In this document: positions 20,382 through 64,000 of the stretch, piece after piece
Layout: every line of letters starts with the position of its first letter
Position numbering within the stretch: position 1 is the first letter of the stretch
Origin: Escherichia coli
GTDB lineage: Bacteria; Pseudomonadota; Gammaproteobacteria; Enterobacterales; Enterobacteriaceae
Reading direction: 5' to 3' (one strand)
Length of the DNA stretch: 64,000 nucleotides
NCBI RefSeq assembly: GCF_003334255.1
Contig: NZ_QOWU01000003.1
Notes under the pieces: generated by a model
What the model was told of the DNA's origin: nothing
The model's database searches: none
The model's input: the letters and a program-made list of their open reading frames with translations, nothing else
Program-made: the position numbers and the translations under genes

Positions 20382-20405
20382 GCCCACCCCCAAGACATAA
20401 AAAAA

Positions 20406-20466
20406 GGGCCTAAAGCCCAGTTATTCTGTAGTCAGATAACAAAAAACCCCGATAAATCGGGGCTTT
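20406..20466 (-). terminator. Two tandem hairpin plus U-run structures between metY and rimP
   Basis: Minus strand: gccccgatttatcggggc followed by TTTTTT, then gggctttaggccc followed by TTTTTTT. Confidence 0.55.
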
Positions 20467-20587
20467 ATATAACTGAACCCTATAACCGCAACTGCGGTCT
20501 GGAGCACTTTCCAGAAGGATTTTTTCAAATCCCACTACGAAGGCCGAAGTCTTCACAGTATATTTGAAAAAGGACTCTAAGGGAAAG

Positions 20588-20664
<77 letters not shown>

Positions 20665-20924
20665 CCTGAAACGTGGCAAATTCTACTCGTTTTGGGTAAA
20701 AAATGCAAATACTGCTGGGATTTGGTGTACCGAGACGGGACGTAAAATCTGCAGGCATTATAGTGATCCACGCCACATTTTGTCAACGTTTATTGCTAAT
20801 CATGTGAATGAATATCCAGTTCACTTTCATTTGTTGAATACTTTTGCCTTCTCCTGCTCTCCCTTAAGCGCATTATTTTACAAAAAACACACTAAACTCT
20901 TCCTGTCTCCGATAAAAGATGATT

Positions 20925-20960
20925 AAATGAAAACTCATTTATTTTGCATAAAAATTCAGT
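20925..20960 (+). promoter_or_regulatory. Two adjacent ARG-box-like sites (ArgR operator) upstream of argG
   Basis: aaTGAAAACTCATTta and ttTGCATAAAAATTCAgt resemble the ARG box consensus TNTGAATWWWWATTCAN; about 50 bp upstream of the argG ATG. Confidence 0.45.
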
Positions 20961-20996
20961 GAGAGCGGAAATCCAGGCTCATCATCAGTTAATTAA

Positions 20997-22355
<1,359 letters not shown>

Positions 22356-22362
22356 TTCGACA

Positions 22363-23988
22363 TCAACCCTGCCCTTCAGGGGTGGGGTTACCTTGCTTAT
22401 CCTCTGTAAACTCCTTTCTGAGCATCACATAATCGAAAACATCATGGTTTGCATCCACAACCCGTGAGTCTCCTTTATAGTGTGCAATCACTTCCTCAAG
22501 CGTTTGCGGCTGTTCCGGCTTTGTTACCCCCATCCACGCATTAATAAGGTAATTATTGTAAGCTGTCGAAAAGATGTTGTTTTCCGTTGTGCGATCCACG
22601 CCATCCCCAAGAACGGGGCTATACCAGATAAACATCGGGACATGATATGCCTGCTGGCTAGCCTCCCTGCCTCCATGAAAATAGACGTTCTTCTTCGTAG
22701 GGTCACGTTCCAGGCCGTGGTCGGCAAAATACATGACCGAGGCGCGGCGATCTTTTAATAATTCAAAAACCTGACCTAGCAAACTATCTGTGTAATGAAT
22801 GGAGTTGTCATAGCAGGCATCCTGATCGTCCTGCGGTTGAAACACGGCGCTGGATTGCGGATAGGCGCTACAAGCCGGTTCATGGCTTCCATTTAAATGA
22901 AGAACAATCAGTTTCTTTTGCTGCGTATTTTGCTGTAATGCTTGCGATAAATGCGGCAACAACAATTCATCAAATCCTCTGACATAAACTGTTTCCATGG
23001 CGCGCATGGCGATACTGGTAACTGCTGTACCATTCTGCCGAAAAGCGGATTGCGAGCTTAGCCAGAAAGTCTGAAATCCTGCTTGATTAGCCATATTAAT
23101 AATGTTGTCGGGGTAATTATGAATGTCATGACTCAAAACAGAATCAGCAGTTAAAGAAAGGGGAACCGACAGCGCAGTGTAAGGTGCGCCGCTTATTGCT
23201 TGATTAAACAGTTTGATCTGTTTTCTTTGTGCTTCAACTTGCGGTGTCGTAGAGCGTGTATATCCATACAAAGACATATTGTCGACACGTACAGACTCCC
23301 CCACAATCAACACGTAGGTATCAATACCTGTATCCCTGACTGATAATTGAAAATACGGCACCGTGTTTGCAATTGAGAGTAATCTTTGATGCTCTTTCGC
23401 TGCTAAAGCAAAATAGTTGAGATTGAAAAACGGCGTATAGGTAGCAAATCGCGACGCTAGTATATATGGACTGAACGCTTTTTTATTTTTTGCATCTTTA
23501 TAAGCAAATTGACAAGCGGAAAATAAACTGCCCGAAATGACAATCAGCAATAATATTCCTGTCACTTTTTTTGTCGGCAAGGAAACATCATATTTTATTA
23601 TTACTGCCAAAAAAAGAAGGGATAAAAAAGCAAAGGCACATAGATAAGGGATATACATCCCCAGCATTTTGACAACTTCATCCGGATCACTCTGGAGCAC
23701 ACTAATCGCAAATCCATCATTGAAAGTTGTACCAAAGGTACACCATGAATAGAGGCTAATACTCATGTCTGCCGCAGTCAGTAACACAAATGGTGCGGCA
23801 ACAAGCAGGCGAAGCGGAAGGGATGATATACGTTTTACAACCAGGATGGTCAGAACGAAGAACAGCAAGCGCTGAACCATATGCGCTCCGGAAGAAGCGA
23901 CTAAGTTCGTAATACCAAAAACAATAACACAAAGATACAACAACCAATGAGATTTAAAAGTTCTAGCAAATTTGTTGAATACTGTCAT
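22363..23988 (-). CDS. yhbX: Putative phosphoethanolamine transferase (EptA/sulfatase-like family) YhbX, 541 aa
   Basis: ORF track 22363..24021; start trimmed to MTVFNKFARTFKS; N-terminal TM helices plus C-terminal sulfatase-like domain; AT-rich. Confidence 0.8.
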   Translation of the reverse strand: MTVFNKFARTFKSHWLLYLCVIVFGITNLVASSGAHMVQRLLFFVLTILVVKRISSLPLRLLVAAPFVLLTAADMSISLYSWCTFGTTFNDGFAISVLQSDPDEVVKMLGMYIPYLCAFAFLSLLFLAVIIKYDVSLPTKKVTGILLLIVISGSLFSACQFAYKDAKNKKAFSPYILASRFATYTPFFNLNYFALAAKEHQRLLSIANTVPYFQLSVRDTGIDTYVLIVGESVRVDNMSLYGYTRSTTPQVEAQRKQIKLFNQAISGAPYTALSVPLSLTADSVLSHDIHNYPDNIINMANQAGFQTFWLSSQSAFRQNGTAVTSIAMRAMETVYVRGFDELLLPHLSQALQQNTQQKKLIVLHLNGSHEPACSAYPQSSAVFQPQDDQDACYDNSIHYTDSLLGQVFELLKDRRASVMYFADHGLERDPTKKNVYFHGGREASQQAYHVPMFIWYSPVLGDGVDRTTENNIFSTAYNNYLINAWMGVTKPEQPQTLEEVIAHYKGDSRVVDANHDVFDYVMLRKEFTEDKQGNPTPEGQG

Positions 23989-24410
23989 CCAGAAATCCAA
24001 GTTCACAACCAATATAAACAATTATCAACAATGTTTAATTTTATATCAGACATGTTTTTCAACTCTGATCCATATCAGAACGAAACACTGTTAGTTTTTT
24101 CTTTTTAAATGATGCGGCCATTGCGTTCTCAGTAATTAAATAACATTATCAATGCGTCTCTAAACATTACGCAGAACGTAGCCATCAGTCGTTATACTGA
24201 CAGGAGCAGGATGGTTTATCGAGAAGTAAACATATCCGTATTCGTACCGGAACTGGAGTTGACACAATAAAGTGCCAATTATGTCAGTAGAAGGGAAAAA
24301 TTTATAACTAAGGCGTACCGGCACCATCGTTTCAAGGTACCAGCTACGAGTAAAGCAACTGGACGAGATACAGATACCTGACAACCATTCCTCAGACCTG
24401 GACCAAAACG

Positions 24411-24440
24411 AAAAAAGACGCTTTTCAGCGTCTCTTTTCT
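24411..24440 (-). terminator. Rho-independent terminator after leuU (secG-leuU transcript)
   Basis: Minus strand: aagacgctgaaaagcgtctt hairpin followed by TTTTTT. Confidence 0.7.
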
Positions 24441-24446
24441 GGAATT

Positions 24447-24533
24447 TGGTACCGAGGACGGGACTTGAACCCGTAAGCCCTATTGGGCACTACCACCTCA
24501 AGGTAGCGTGTCTACCAATTCCACCACCTCGGC
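24447..24533 (-). tRNA. leuU: tRNA-Leu (GAG), type II with long variable arm
   Basis: Minus strand reads GCCGAGGTGGTGGAATTGGTAGACACGCTACCTTGAGGTGGTAGTGCCCAATAGGGCTTACGGGTTCAAGTCCCGTCCTCGGTACCA. Confidence 0.92.
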
Positions 24534-24547
24534 ACGGATACTACTTT

Positions 24548-24880
24548 TTAGTTCGGGATATCGCTGGTCGGCTTAGCCGGAGCAGCTGGCTGAGTTTGTT
24601 CGGTTTTCGCCGGTGCACTCAGATTTTCCCATTCGCTACCTTTATTGGTTTTGTTGCTATTGATGTTACCCAGCACCAGACTGATGATGAAGAATAACGT
24701 TGCCAGCAGCGCCGTCATGCGGGTCATGAAGTTACCAGAACCACTTGAACCAAACAGCGTAGCGGAAGCGCCTGCTCCGAAGGAGGCTCCCATATCAGCG
24801 CCTTTACCTTGCTGCAGCATGATCAGACCAACAAGGCCAATTGCCACAATAAGGAAAACTACTAAAAGAGCTTCATACAT
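24548..24880 (-). CDS. secG: Protein-export membrane protein SecG, 110 aa
   Basis: ORF track 24548..24928; start trimmed to MYEALLVVFLIVAIGLVGLIMLQQGKGADMG. Confidence 0.9.
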   Translation of the reverse strand: MYEALLVVFLIVAIGLVGLIMLQQGKGADMGASFGAGASATLFGSSGSGNFMTRMTALLATLFFIISLVLGNINSNKTNKGSEWENLSAPAKTEQTQPAAPAKPTSDIPN

Positions 24881-55451: not shown

Positions 55452-56426
55452 TTACGTTATAAATTGTGTGAGAAATGCGGAATTCCCCTCAACGACCCAC
55501 TCCGTTGGAGGTAGCCACGGACGTCCCAGCGCCGATCCCTGTACGCCATGTTCATTCAGATAGCGATCCAGCTCGACCATTCCCGTCCATCGATTTTCGC
55601 ACCACAGCGGAGCAAGCAGCGTCGGGCGACGGGCGCTGGCGGAAATGCGGTGGTAGATCACTTCCGGTGGCGTATGGCGAATCATTTCTCCGGCAGTGAG
55701 CGTGTAATCCTCCAGTTCAATACCGTTCAAACGCCCCGCTTCCCAGGCTTTCGCCATAATGCTGCCTTTCACAATATGCAGCGGATGCAGCTTTATGCCG
55801 TCCACGCCGGTTTCAACCACTCGCTCCAGCGTTTGCAAACATTCAGCCTGCCCTTCGCCAGGCAGGCCGACAATTAAGTGGGAACACACCTTCAGCCCGC
55901 GCTGACGTGCCAGCTGGGTTGTACGCTGATAACAGGCAAAATCATGGCCGCGGTTGATGCGATGCAGTGTTTTGTCGTGGGCGGTTTGTAGCCCCAGCTC
56001 CAGCCACACTTCGTAACCCTGGTCCTTATATTCGCAAAGCAGATCCAGCACCGCATCCGGCACGCAGTCCGGGCGGGTACCCACACACAAACCGACAATA
56101 TTGGCCTGGCTCACCGCCTGCTGATACATAGAACGCAGCACCTGAACTTCCGCAAAGGTGCTGGTATACGCCTGAAAGTAGGCCAGATAGCGTTTAGCGC
56201 GGTTAACTAAATTCGCCTGGTGCGCCAGTTGCTCGGCAATGGAACGATGCTGCTGCGCTTCATCGGCAAACGAGGCAACATTACAGAATGTGCAGCCACC
56301 ACGCCCGATGGTACCGTCACGGTTAGGGCAGCTAAAACCGCCGTGCAGCGTCAGCTTATGCACCTTTTGCCCATAACGACGGGTGAGATCACCACCAAAC
56401 ATATTGACTAATTTCTGTAACTGCAT
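55452..56426 (-). CDS. yhcC: Radical-SAM family protein YhcC (start uncertain)
   Basis: ORF track 55452..56459; TIGR01212-like; start provisionally placed at MQLQKLVNMFGG; alternative starts at the upstream ATG or at MFGG. Confidence 0.75.
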   Translation of the reverse strand: MQLQKLVNMFGGDLTRRYGQKVHKLTLHGGFSCPNRDGTIGRGGCTFCNVASFADEAQQHRSIAEQLAHQANLVNRAKRYLAYFQAYTSTFAEVQVLRSMYQQAVSQANIVGLCVGTRPDCVPDAVLDLLCEYKDQGYEVWLELGLQTAHDKTLHRINRGHDFACYQRTTQLARQRGLKVCSHLIVGLPGEGQAECLQTLERVVETGVDGIKLHPLHIVKGSIMAKAWEAGRLNGIELEDYTLTAGEMIRHTPPEVIYHRISASARRPTLLAPLWCENRWTGMVELDRYLNEHGVQGSALGRPWLPPTEWVVEGNSAFLTQFIT

Positions 56427-57100
56427 AATCTGATAGACCGCGCCTTGAAAAGAGGCCAAAGCCTGCCATTTTTAGCTCAATTCGGCGATGACCTGGATCA
56501 ATCGTCCCGGCCTGCTTTTATCAACTGCATAATCAATCAAAATTACCGAAATTTCATGCATAATCACATAAATCACTTTTGCTTATCTTGTGTCAGATTT
56601 TTTTATCTCCTGATGGATTTTAGGCAAAAACAGTAGCATGAAACGTCATTACCAATTAAGGCAGTATAAAATGCTGGTTTTGTCGTCAGTTCAAGGCAGG
56701 ATAAGGGTTAACACACCTTTATGACAGTCAGGAATTGACTGTTTCTCTAACGACTTCCCTTTTAGCCTTAAAGATAAAATCCATTTTAATTTCAGTCATT
56801 TAATAAAGAATTTTGCGCTAAAGCACATTTCTGTACCAATAAGCTTGCCATTTGACCTGTATCAGCTTTCCCGATAAGTTGGAAATCCGCTGGAAGCTTT
56901 CTGGATGAGCAGCCTGCTCATCATATTTATGCAGTAATTGAGATCCCCTCTTCACCGTATTAACCGATGCGAAAAGGACAACAAGGGGGCGAATGCGAGG
57001 CGCGCGTATGACACGCAAACCCCGTCGCCACGCTCTTTCTGTGCCCGTGCGCAGCGGTTCGGAAGTGGGGTTCCCGCAGAGCCTGGGGGAGGTTCACGAT

Positions 57101-61561: not shown

Positions 61562-62992
<1,431 letters not shown>

Positions 62993-63551
62993 GCGAGGTA
63001 ACAATGAATTCGCCAGACTGTGTCTGGCGAATCAAATTACTGACGAAGTGCGCGTTGTTTTCTGGCAAATGCGGCATGAGCGTTTGACCTTTCCTATAAT
63101 AGGGATAATTTTCAATAAATTGTGCTTTGTTCACCAAGTCTGATGAGTGAAGCACATCAAGCAATTTCTCATTTACAATCCGTCTCAATTACTTGTTAAC
63201 ACCTCTGACAATACCGATTCTGCAAGCTATTCAGTCTTTTCATTCCATGTAAATTGTCTCGATATTAATATACAAAATATGAATATAAAAAACCAATATA
63301 TTATCCTTAATTATCTATATATTTTCCTATTTTTCAGCGCAAACATTCATGTAATGAATAATTATCACCACAAACCACCTCACCAGCACCTTATTATTCA
63401 CATGATCGTAACTATAAAATTCATTAAATAAATACATCCCAGCAAGTTGGCTATTTCTGAACGAGTTATTTATTTACATTCACAAACAGATATATATACT
63501 GCTTCAGCTTTTTATTTTAAAAAATAAATTTGTTATTAAGGATATGTTCAT

Positions 63552-63923
63552 ATGTTTTTCAAAAAGAACCTCACAACAGCTGCTATTTGTGCAGCACTTT
63601 CTGTTGCAGCATTCAGTGCCATGGCAACAGATTCAACTGATACAGAATTAACTATCATCGGCGAGTATACCCCTGGTGCATGTACCCCAGTTGTTACGGG
63701 CGGCGGCATTGTTGACTATGGGAAACATCATAACAGTGCGCTGAATCCGACCGGTAAAAGTAATAAACTGGTTCAACTGGGCCGCAAAAACAGCACATTA
63801 AATATAACCTGCACAGCACCAACGCTAATTGCTGTAACCTCCAAGGATAACCGTCAGTCGACCATTGTAGCGTTAAACGACACATCCTATATTGAAAAAG
63901 CTTATGATACTCTCGTAGATATG
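63552..63923 (+). pseudogene. gltF: gltF (periplasmic protein GltF), N-terminal 123-124 codons, apparently truncated by IS1
   Basis: ORF track 63552..63950; signal peptide MFFKKNLTTAAICAALSVAAFSAMA; frame runs into the IS1 terminal repeat at about 63924 and stops at a TAG inside it; I recall intact GltF as roughly twice this length. Confidence 0.7.
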
Positions 63924-64000
63924 GGTGATGCTGCCAACTTACTGATTTAGTGTATGATGGTGTTTTTGAGGTGCTCCAGTGGCTTCTGTTTCTATCAGCT
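63924..64000 (+). mobile_element. IS1 insertion sequence, left terminal inverted repeat and 5-prime region (element continues past the window end)
   Basis: GGTGATGCTGCCAACTTACTGATTTAGTGTATGATGGTGTTTTTGAGGTGCTCCAGTGGCTTCTGTTTCTATCAGCT matches the IS1 left end as I recall it, including the start of insA. Confidence 0.85.
63979..64000 (+). CDS. insA: IS1 InsA, first 7 codons only (GTG start)
   Basis: GTG GCT TCT GTT TCT ATC AGC translates to (M)ASVSIS, the InsA N-terminus. Confidence 0.7.

Follow-up and report, generated by a model that had tools for sequence, protein, structure and literature searches.

yhbX between leuU and argG of Escherichia coli: a likely horizontally acquired single-gene cassette for a predicted phosphoethanolamine transferase

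Replacement hotspots flanked by core genes are a feature of the Escherichia coli pan-genome. The leuU–argG slot described here resembles them in its unrelated AT-rich cassettes with identical boundaries, its conserved flanking genes and its adjoining tRNA gene, but it is very small, with one gene per state, three states and no mobility genes. Its usual occupant, yhbX, belongs to the same superfamily as E. coli and Neisseria EptA and MCR-1, and the zinc ligands and threonine nucleophile of these enzymes are kept in YhbX. Within E. coli, OpgE (YbiP) is described as transferring phosphoethanolamine onto osmoregulated periplasmic glucans (PMC3818809). Like YhbX, OpgE comes from a stand-alone gene and combines a membrane domain with a sulfatase-type domain, with no EptA/EptB N-terminal Pfam domain detected; in contrast, opgE has 48% GC. 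YhbX itself has been listed as a protein without established function (PMC4013655). PMI3040 of Proteus mirabilis (PMC4013655) and related Proteus and Providencia proteins fall into a YhbX-like clade with it, but come from other species and another locus. No biochemical or expression report on YhbX was found in the literature searched.

We analyzed yhbX within a 64,000-nucleotide stretch of an E. coli contig (NZ_QOWU01000003.1), referred to as the window. The window is E. coli chromosome, with 100% identity to K-12-like strains at 22356–24446, a locus whose yhbX-to-leuU part corresponds to 3,319,988–3,322,071 in MG1655; yhbX is an already known E. coli gene, and the locus is otherwise ordinary. 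It is composed as follows:

21012–22355, plus strand: argG (gene map)
22356–22362: 7 bases between the convergent argG and yhbX stop codons, left cassette boundary (sequence)
22363–23988, minus strand: yhbX coding sequence, 541 aa (ORF list; annotated yhbX/b3173 in MG1655 and other RefSeq genomes)
22365–22389: G+C-rich hairpin AACCCTGCCCTTCAGGGGTGGGGTT within the final 10 yhbX codons (folding)
23989–24404, minus strand: cassette-specific yhbX upstream region, 416 bp, presumed promoter and 5' UTR (cassette boundary at 24405)
24410–24439, minus strand: intrinsic terminator of the secG–leuU transcript (terminator scan)
24447–24533, minus strand: leuU, tRNA-Leu(GAG), conserved neighbor (ARAGORN, Rfam tRNA model, annotation)
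24548–24880, minus strand: secG (gene map)

Our analyses suggest that 22356–24404 is likely a horizontally acquired single-gene cassette, comprising yhbX and its own 416-bp upstream region and encoding a predicted phosphoethanolamine transferase. The gene is monocistronic between leuU and argG, 458 bp from leuU, and its reading frame stays open further upstream as far as a TTG at 24021. The hairpin at the opposite end is not followed by a T-run, and a terminator scan of 22200–24600 found no terminator-like site at this junction; a related hairpin occurs in the cassette of the E. fergusonii type, there outside its shorter reading frame.

The preliminary description had called both yhbX and the spacer upstream of it AT-rich, and this holds in full for the gene. 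With 43.1% GC, yhbX is the lowest of the 57 window genes (other 56: mean 52.2%, sd 2.6; z = −3.5), and it is also lowest in GC3 (42.1%, mean 56.0%) and in codon adaptation (0.362 vs 0.517 ± 0.081, with translation genes from the same window as reference set). It is thus clearly distinguishable from its flanks. Amino-acid content is not the cause of the yhbX bias; GC3 values are 51–65% in the window's other membrane proteins. The bias is most pronounced in the 5' half encoding the membrane domain (aa 1–220; GC 38.9%, GC3 36.4%), the most AT-rich portion of the gene, with 45.9% GC in the 3' half. Positions 23312–24311 have 37.5% GC compared with 51.8% for the window and rank second among its AT-rich kilobases, and the whole cassette has 42.1% GC, with 51–52% in the 5 kb on each side. 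The spacer at 24022–24446 (38.6% GC), however, lies well within the range of window intergenic regions, 30%–61% (ubiT–ubiU 34%, npr–yrbL 38%), and is therefore not anomalous alone.

Outside E. coli, the leuU–argG junction is empty (about 190–300 bp) in Salmonella, Enterobacter sp. Bisph1 and Kosakonia, whereas this site is filled with other cargo in Raoultella and Klebsiella indica; none of these loci contained a YhbX remnant. In Salmonella, the leuU–argG distance was about 190 bp in eight genomes, reached via the SecG sequence of Salmonella arizonae, as the look-up with E. coli SecG gave only E. coli contexts. When the 5' half of leuU was used as the query, yhbX was found in 0 of 120 leuU loci of other species among the matches listed, which were mostly from Pseudomonas, comprised about 40 Enterobacterales loci, contained Klebsiella only as K. 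indica and included neither Escherichia nor Citrobacter. The paralogs published for Salmonella LT2 and Citrobacter rodentium likewise do not include YhbX (PMC4013655). The closest homologs outside Escherichia, from Buttiauxella, Mixta and Microvirgula, are 41–46% identical, followed by nearly full-length proteins of Proteus and Providencia with 33–35% identity; we took this ranking from a search of 50% representatives, since the 90%-clustered database was dominated by near-identical E. coli entries. These homologs sit at unrelated loci, one source is a betaproteobacterium, and the searches returned no donor of yhbX.

An old horizontal acquisition, as already proposed in the preliminary description, is well supported by the foreign composition, by the empty junctions without remnant and by homologs that are at most 46% identical and located elsewhere. 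Alternatively, yhbX might be ancestral to the Enterobacteriaceae and repeatedly lost, its AT-richness then stemming from membrane-protein composition and low expression. The gene's occurrence in 95% of E. coli, the presence of the E. fergusonii version in the same slot, a within-species divergence that follows the flanks and the weaker codon bias typical of low-expression genes would all agree with such an ancestry. We nevertheless consider it very improbable: no window gene has a lower GC3 than yhbX, with the other membrane proteins well above it, the empty junctions hold no remnant, and the distant homologs lie at other loci and extend to a betaproteobacterium. In addition, unrelated AT-rich cassettes use the same slot, and yhbX is far more divergent between E. 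coli and E. fergusonii than its flanks. Between K-12 and E. fergusonii, the flanking proteins are 99–100% identical (dS 0.04–0.33), whereas the yhbX products are 69.5% identical and synonymous sites are saturated. As Escherichia was sampled through E. coli and E. fergusonii, any placement of the yhbX gain is provisional.

In our reconstruction, the ancestral gene order is glmM–secG–leuU–metY–rimP, and some Enterobacteriaceae have argG separating leuU from metY. yhbX probably then entered the leftover leuU–argG junction in Escherichia, and in E. coli the cassette probably predates the split of the sampled lineages and is kept by purifying selection.

Typing the slot in 5426 complete E. coli genomes revealed three states. 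K-12-type yhbX occupies about 5180 of them (5180 by subtraction, 5179–5181 by direct count), an unrelated XRE-HTH gene is found in 237, and the remaining state, an E. fergusonii-type yhbX with 69% amino-acid identity, in 9. yhbX is not universal, then, and is dispensable, with about 5% of strains carrying replacement cassettes instead. The alternative occupants are unrelated and AT-rich. PADLOC found nothing for YhbX and only HTH-level matches for the XRE-HTH cassette protein. All three types share the same boundaries, the argG stop codon and the leuU terminator: homology between the cassettes stops at the final argG codons, and at the right edge variable DNA extends to 24404, with conserved flank again from 24405. 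The secG–leuU terminator itself is kept in Salmonella as well as in all three types.

The position next to leuU had been taken as a hint to tRNA-targeted integration, and DNA 3' of leuU indeed varies across genera. If a tyrosine integrase had inserted a classical genomic islet at the leuU 3' end, this could explain both why the slot lies directly 3' of a tRNA gene and why its cargo differs between Raoultella, Klebsiella indica and E. coli. However, the ORF list contained no integrase gene or fragment in the slot, and neither a direct repeat of the leuU 3' end nor, with the Rfam model, a tRNA fragment was found there. Variable DNA moreover begins past the terminator rather than inside the tRNA, and the far boundary is the argG stop codon, which makes an islet of this kind very unlikely. 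A 20-nt leuU-like repeat in the spacer matches 15 of 20 bases of the anticodon region, and we judged it to be due to chance. Given the shared argG-stop and leuU-terminator boundaries, homologous recombination in the flanks fits better than site-specific integration. In about 4.5% of strains the cassette is exchanged from boundary to boundary for the XRE-HTH gene or the E. fergusonii version, most likely through homologous recombination between the conserved flanking sequences.

Inside E. coli, yhbX and its flanks diverge at a similar pace, and the gene is under purifying selection, with dS of 0.05–0.10, similar to argG and glmM, and dN/dS of 0.06–0.13. One might still regard the gene as a decaying relic without present function. 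The 237 natural replacements and the viable knockouts that have been used in screens (PMC4551910, PMC9765716) point in this direction, and no phenotype has been established. Among the genomes sampled, moreover, yhbX is hit by an IS insertion or altered in length by 1 bp in a few per cent, from which it follows that selection is not strong everywhere. Yet a relic is scarcely credible in view of such low dN/dS values at synonymous divergence up to 0.10, of a reading frame that is full-length in about 95% of E. coli genomes, of catalytic residues that are all intact and of a conserved upstream core.

At the protein level, the following features were assigned, all on the minus strand:

23503–23949: N-terminal membrane domain, five hydrophobic segments, about aa 14–162 (Kyte-Doolittle scan)
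22588–23319: periplasmic catalytic domain of the sulfatase/alkaline-phosphatase type, aa 224–467 (Pfam PF00884, E = 3e-56)
23296–23298: Glu231 codon, predicted zinc ligand, pairs with EptA Glu240 (alignment)
23176–23178: Thr271 codon, predicted catalytic nucleophile, pairs with Neisseria EptA Thr280 (alignment)
22882–22884: His369 codon, pairs with EptA His383 (alignment)
22717–22722: Asp423–His424 codons, predicted zinc ligands, pair with EptA Asp452–His453 (alignment)
22675–22677: His438 codon, pairs with EptA His465 (alignment)

The catalytic domain matches the solved structures of EptA, EptC and MCR-1, and the alignment with full-length Neisseria EptA (5fgn) starts at residue 41 (E = 7e-24). 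An alignment of 16 sequences, among them YhbX-like proteins, EptA, EptB, EptC and OpgE, shows no variation at E231, T271, H369, D423 and H424. YhbX therefore has the features that define the EptA/MCR type, a sulfatase-type domain, five N-terminal segments and the threonine with its zinc-ligand set, and its sequence predicts an intact phosphoethanolamine transferase of the inner membrane, built from five transmembrane helices and a zinc-dependent periplasmic domain. In analogy to EptA and MCR-1, Thr271 would accept phosphoethanolamine from phosphatidylethanolamine, with release of diacylglycerol, and would then hand it over to an envelope acceptor.

The EptA-like sulfatase fold initially proposed for YhbX is thus borne out by the Pfam match and the catalytic residues. 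YhbX scored 94–156 bits with the curated EptA, EptB and CptA models and failed all cut-offs (404–900), namely those for EptA (NF008619, 94.5 bits, cut-off 660; NF007160, 122 bits, cut-off 561), EptB (NF008593, 105 bits, cut-off 493) and EptC/CptA (NF007933, 142 bits, cut-off 404; NF012179, 124 bits, cut-off 900). A Pfam scan of YhbX found the Sulfatase domain alone and did not detect the EptA/EptB N-terminal domain. The EptC structure, from the enzyme acting on the LPS core heptose phosphate, matches at a similar level (E = 8e-24), although EptC and EptB, the latter acting on Kdo, are only 24–32% identical to YhbX. Among the E. coli paralogs, OpgE is nearest (122 bits; 30% identity across 268 aa) and EptA most distant (85 bits). 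In a rough neighbor-joining tree, in which some distances are saturated, 255 of 300 bootstraps placed OpgE together with the YhbX clade. Since both genes occur in E. coli and their products are about 30% identical, YhbX is a paralog and not an ortholog of OpgE.

A role in lipid A or core modification, which the preliminary description had assumed, is hence unsupported. In its full form, this alternative holds that YhbX is an EptA-like modifier of lipid A or the LPS core, silenced by H-NS and affecting resistance to polymyxin or cationic peptides once derepressed. It would be compatible with the superfamily shared with EptA, EptB, EptC and MCR, with the intact catalytic residues and with the EptC/CptA models being among the top scores. 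Still, we consider it rather unlikely, given the low scores against the curated cut-offs, the missing N-terminal Pfam domain and the distance to EptA. The genomic setting differs as well: eptA abuts basR in the eptA–basRS operon, whereas yhbX is solitary and not next to basRS. With the YhbX clade nearest to OpgE and the EptA, EptB and CptA definitions failed, a periplasmic or surface glycan is weakly favored over lipid A phosphates as the putative acceptor.

Two further minus-strand features, both upstream of the yhbX start codon, bear on regulation:

24021–24049: weak sigma-70-like match, CTGATA/17-nt spacer/GATAAT, the sole one upstream of the ATG (consensus scan)
24089–24238: most conserved upstream core, nucleotide diversity 0.003–0.006, candidate regulatory segment (sliding window, 14 distinct sequences)

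Promoter-like matches upstream of yhbX were no more numerous than expected from shuffled sequence. For heat-shock RNA polymerase (sigma-32), a weak SELEX peak has been reported in the interval separating yhbX from leuU (PMC5493296). The upstream region is present in a single copy per genome, is unrelated to that of the E. fergusonii-type allele and contains no Rfam family. Among 14 distinct E. coli sequences its diversity is 0.014, compared with 0.040 at yhbX third codon positions. We rejected a hidden RNA or small gene in the spacer, as a diversity of 0.014 lies within the ordinary intergenic range of 0.0007–0.021 in these 14 sequences. When the spacer was compared with synonymous sites in four strains, conservation had seemed far stronger; with 14 sequences it is ordinary. 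The region also contains a 74-aa open reading frame at 24160–24384 without annotation in MG1655.

AT-rich DNA is the kind preferred by H-NS. The 5' 1.2 kb of the yhbX region is 62–63% AT, and the kilobase with 37.5% GC is an AT tract as expected of an H-NS target. It is plausible that H-NS binding at this 5' region of 62% AT would keep yhbX expression low, a point that would also agree with a silenced lipid A or core modifier. The H-NS high-affinity motif TCGATAAATT, with up to 2 mismatches, is not clearly enriched, with four matches in 2.1 kb, a small count equivalent to 1.9 per kb at yhbX vs 1.3 per kb window-wide.

Beyond the acquired single-gene cassette as such, one may speculate that the leuU–argG junction of Escherichia is a small cassette-exchange site whose polymorphism is maintained by selection and that the YhbX clade serves a new acceptor, distinct from lipid A, Kdo, heptose and glucan. 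We regard this as quite unlikely. If true, a transferase that modifies the surface or periplasm, in two versions 31% apart and with unrelated promoters, would alternate with an XRE-HTH protein, and the resulting envelope modification could alter sensitivity to phages, colicins or host peptides. On the practical side, insertions have been engineered at the argG–yhbX and leuU–yhbX junctions (PMC12421378, bioRxiv 10.1101/2023.02.03.527047), and the three-state slot explains why both tolerate them. The 237 genomes of the HTH type represent natural knockouts that can be used for association studies. yhbX is among the last envelope-enzyme paralogs of E. coli K-12 without an assigned substrate, and our results count against annotating it in the manner of a colistin-resistance gene. 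As an acquired, dispensable family member on the OpgE side, it points experiments beyond polymyxin assays, to glycans and other acceptors.

The window covers E. coli chromosomal DNA from yraR to gltD. Positions 22356-24446, exactly the DNA from the argG stop codon to leuU, are 100% identical to K-12-like strains, and RefSeq genomes annotate yhbX there; yhbX is already a known gene. The local gene map reads as follows:

argG, 21012-22355, plus strand
yhbX, 22363-23988, minus strand
spacer between yhbX and leuU, 458 bp
leuU tRNA-Leu(GAG), 24447-24533, minus strand
secG, 24548-24880, minus strand, then glmM

An ordinary rimP leader RNA (Rfam RF01770, 102 bits) lies at 20399-20499 on the minus strand, downstream of metY as expected.

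The preliminary description took yhbX, together with its spacer, as conspicuously AT-rich and as an old horizontal acquisition. Base composition indeed distinguished the gene from its neighbours. Its GC content (43.1% vs 52.2 ± 2.6% for the other 56 window genes; z = −3.5), GC3 (42.1%) and codon adaptation (0.362 vs 0.517 ± 0.081, with translation genes of the window as reference) were each the lowest in the window. Amino-acid composition is not the cause, since GC3 is 51-65% in the window's other membrane proteins. The most AT-rich part of yhbX is the 5′ half, which encodes the membrane domain (GC 38.9%, GC3 36.4%). The upstream spacer has 38.6% GC, but intergenic regions of the window range from 30% to 61%, and the spacer alone is therefore unremarkable. 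The compositional anomaly thus sits in the gene and not in the spacer. Elsewhere, the most AT-rich kilobase of the window is found at 62968-63967 beside gltD (36.6% GC), and an AT-rich 600-bp tract precedes gltB (56378-56989).

A census of 5426 complete E. coli genomes showed that yhbX is not universal. The K-12-type gene, with most of its length present, occurs in 5179-5181 of them, whereas 237 carry an unrelated 1.17-kb cassette at its position, e.g., L005:2157-3325 in E. coli JNEC-KY175, which fills the same slot as window positions 22356-24404. The product of this cassette, 317 aa long, has an XRE-type helix-turn-helix at its N-terminus, and its last ~270 aa matched no Pfam, NCBIfam or PADLOC family. 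An identity of 99% or more among 229 copies suggests that the cassette spread recently. In the nine remaining genomes, the slot is filled by another version of yhbX (531 aa; 69% protein and ~74% DNA identity), which is the E. fergusonii gene and occupies the same slot in that species. Three states hence cover every genome (5180 + 237 + 9 = 5426). All three cassettes are AT-rich (42% GC for the K-12-type, 37% for XRE-HTH, 41% for the E. fergusonii-type) and share their limits: homology ends at the last argG codons and returns 42 bp from leuU, just past its terminator. Among the nine genomes labelled E. coli with the E. fergusonii-type gene, strain AST85 (loci L002, L160 and L161; L154 is E. fergusonii) matches an E. 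fergusonii genome at 98.9% identity over 10.8 kb around the slot, and across the entire 64-kb neighbourhood its identity to K-12 reaches only 94-99%. A large import, a divergent lineage or mislabelling of the genome could each account for this.

Insertions of IS1, IS3-family (IS1203) and IS4-family (ISVsa5) elements or 1-bp length changes affect yhbX in a few per cent of sampled genomes (genome hits H1, H51, H62, H81, H119, H138; H68, H92, H96). Some 1-bp changes may be assembly errors; taken together, these disruptions are consistent with a dispensable gene. Strain CNR20180903 yielded no full-length yhbX match; a truncated yhbX-like phosphoethanolamine transferase pseudogene (L006:5137-5778, ~77% DNA identity to yhbX) belongs there to an island that carries an integrase and has inserted next to glnH and dps.

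Outside Escherichia, we scanned leuU neighbourhoods with the 5′ half of leuU as query, which gave at least 120 loci. Among the matches listed, the order glmM-secG-leuU-(metY)-rimP occurs in Pseudomonas, Stutzerimonas and most Enterobacterales, and argG separates leuU from rimP only in part of the Enterobacteriaceae, namely Escherichia, Salmonella, Enterobacter, Kosakonia and Raoultella (window 20588-22355 compared with loci L018-L136). From this gene order, argG itself appears to be an insertion specific to a lineage. In Enterobacter sp. Bisph1, Kosakonia cowanii and eight Salmonella genomes, leuU and argG are joined by an empty junction of about 190-300 bp. In Raoultella ornithinolytica this junction holds 2.7 kb of other genes (L118:3326-5904), with three small ORFs of 209 aa (unassigned function), 183 aa and 133 aa. 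In Klebsiella indica, unrelated genes span > 13 kb downstream of leuU (L129:1800-14899); by eye, their ORFs resemble a porin, MFS transporters, a LacI-type regulator and a DapA-like enzyme. No YhbX match appeared in non-Escherichia leuU loci among the matches listed, nor in the empty sites even at E = 10. In a published comparison, neither Salmonella LT2 nor Citrobacter rodentium is listed with a YhbX (PMC4013655). Below the Escherichia cluster, the closest relatives among 1.84 billion searched representative proteins were 41-48% identical, with Buttiauxella, Mixta gaviniae and the betaproteobacterium Microvirgula named, followed by Proteus and Providencia at ~35%. In Buttiauxella and Mixta, the genes stand alone, at unrelated loci.

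Among four E. coli lineages, dS of yhbX (0.05-0.10) resembles that of argG (0.05-0.14) and is somewhat under that of glmM (0.12-0.21); dN/dS is 0.06-0.13. The cassette is therefore older than the split of the sampled lineages and under purifying selection that is weaker than on the housekeeping neighbours. Between K-12 and E. fergusonii, flanking genes encode 99-100% identical proteins (dS 0.04-0.33), whereas the YhbX proteins are 69.5% identical, synonymous sites are saturated and upstream regions are unrelated. In-place divergence at the pace of the flanks thus does not account for the two versions; either each arrived on its own, or one replaced the other through recombination in the flanks. 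Overall, yhbX is shown to be a foreign, old and dispensable single-gene cassette. The old horizontal acquisition first proposed withstood both outcomes named as refuting it, since composition differs from the flanking genes and presence is not universal. The three-state slot and the empty sites in sister genera are useful details and no new kind of system.

As for leuU as an integration landmark, the DNA 3′ of the tRNA gene is variable across genera, but the variable DNA starts past the leuU terminator, and we found no integrase, tRNA 3′ end repeat or tRNA fragment in the slot. A 20-nt stretch upstream of yhbX (24320-24339) is 75% identical to the leuU anticodon-arm region (24486-24505); the Rfam tRNA model detects no additional tRNA at this position, and the resemblance is therefore probably chance. 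We infer that cassettes would be exchanged by homologous recombination in argG and secG-leuU, a simpler account than tRNA-targeted integration.

The cassette-specific upstream region of yhbX is 416 bp long and single-copy, matches no Rfam family and features only a weak sigma-70-like site. Its nucleotide diversity (0.014 vs 0.040 at yhbX third codon positions; conserved core 24089-24238) is ordinary for an intergenic regulatory region. Genomic SELEX data include a weak peak of sigma-32 polymerase in the yhbX-leuU interval (PMC5493296). The stop codons of argG and yhbX are separated by 7 bp, no terminator-like site was found at this junction, and the pair is among reported overlapping convergent transcripts (PMC12288877). 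Regarding the proposed H-NS silencing, the 62-63% AT of the 5′ kilobase would be compatible with H-NS binding; the high-affinity motif occurs at 4 sites in 2.1 kb vs 1.3 per kb window-wide, a small count without clear enrichment.

YhbX has Sulfatase as its sole Pfam domain (aa 224-467, E = 3e-56) and carries five hydrophobic segments across aa 14-162; it aligns to full-length Neisseria EptA (5fgn), E. coli EptC and MCR-1. Its residues E231, T271, H369, D423, H424 and H438 correspond to EptA E240, the nucleophile T280, H383, D452, H453 and H465; the first five are invariant among ten YhbX-like proteins and E. coli EptA, EptB, EptC and OpgE. Domain, membrane segments and catalytic residues thus place YhbX in the phosphoethanolamine transferase superfamily on every sequence criterion and show it to be an intact, membrane-anchored enzyme of this group. 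However, the curated models of EptA, EptB and CptA have cut-offs of 404-900 bits, and YhbX reached 94-156 bits with them, which places it outside these specific families. Its nearest E. coli paralogue is OpgE (122 bits), followed by EptC (111), EptB (102) and, at the opposite end, EptA (85); the genes of these four have 48-50% GC. Rough neighbour-joining grouped OpgE with the YhbX-like clade in 255/300 resamplings. The label of an EptA-like lipid A or core enzyme should hence be loosened. By analogy to the established EptA/MCR mechanism, a zinc site would activate the predicted nucleophile Thr271, which would take phosphoethanolamine from phosphatidylethanolamine and pass it onto a periplasmic-side acceptor. 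Because YhbX lies near OpgE and falls below the EptA, EptB and CptA cut-offs, our guess is that this acceptor may be a glycan rather than lipid A phosphates.
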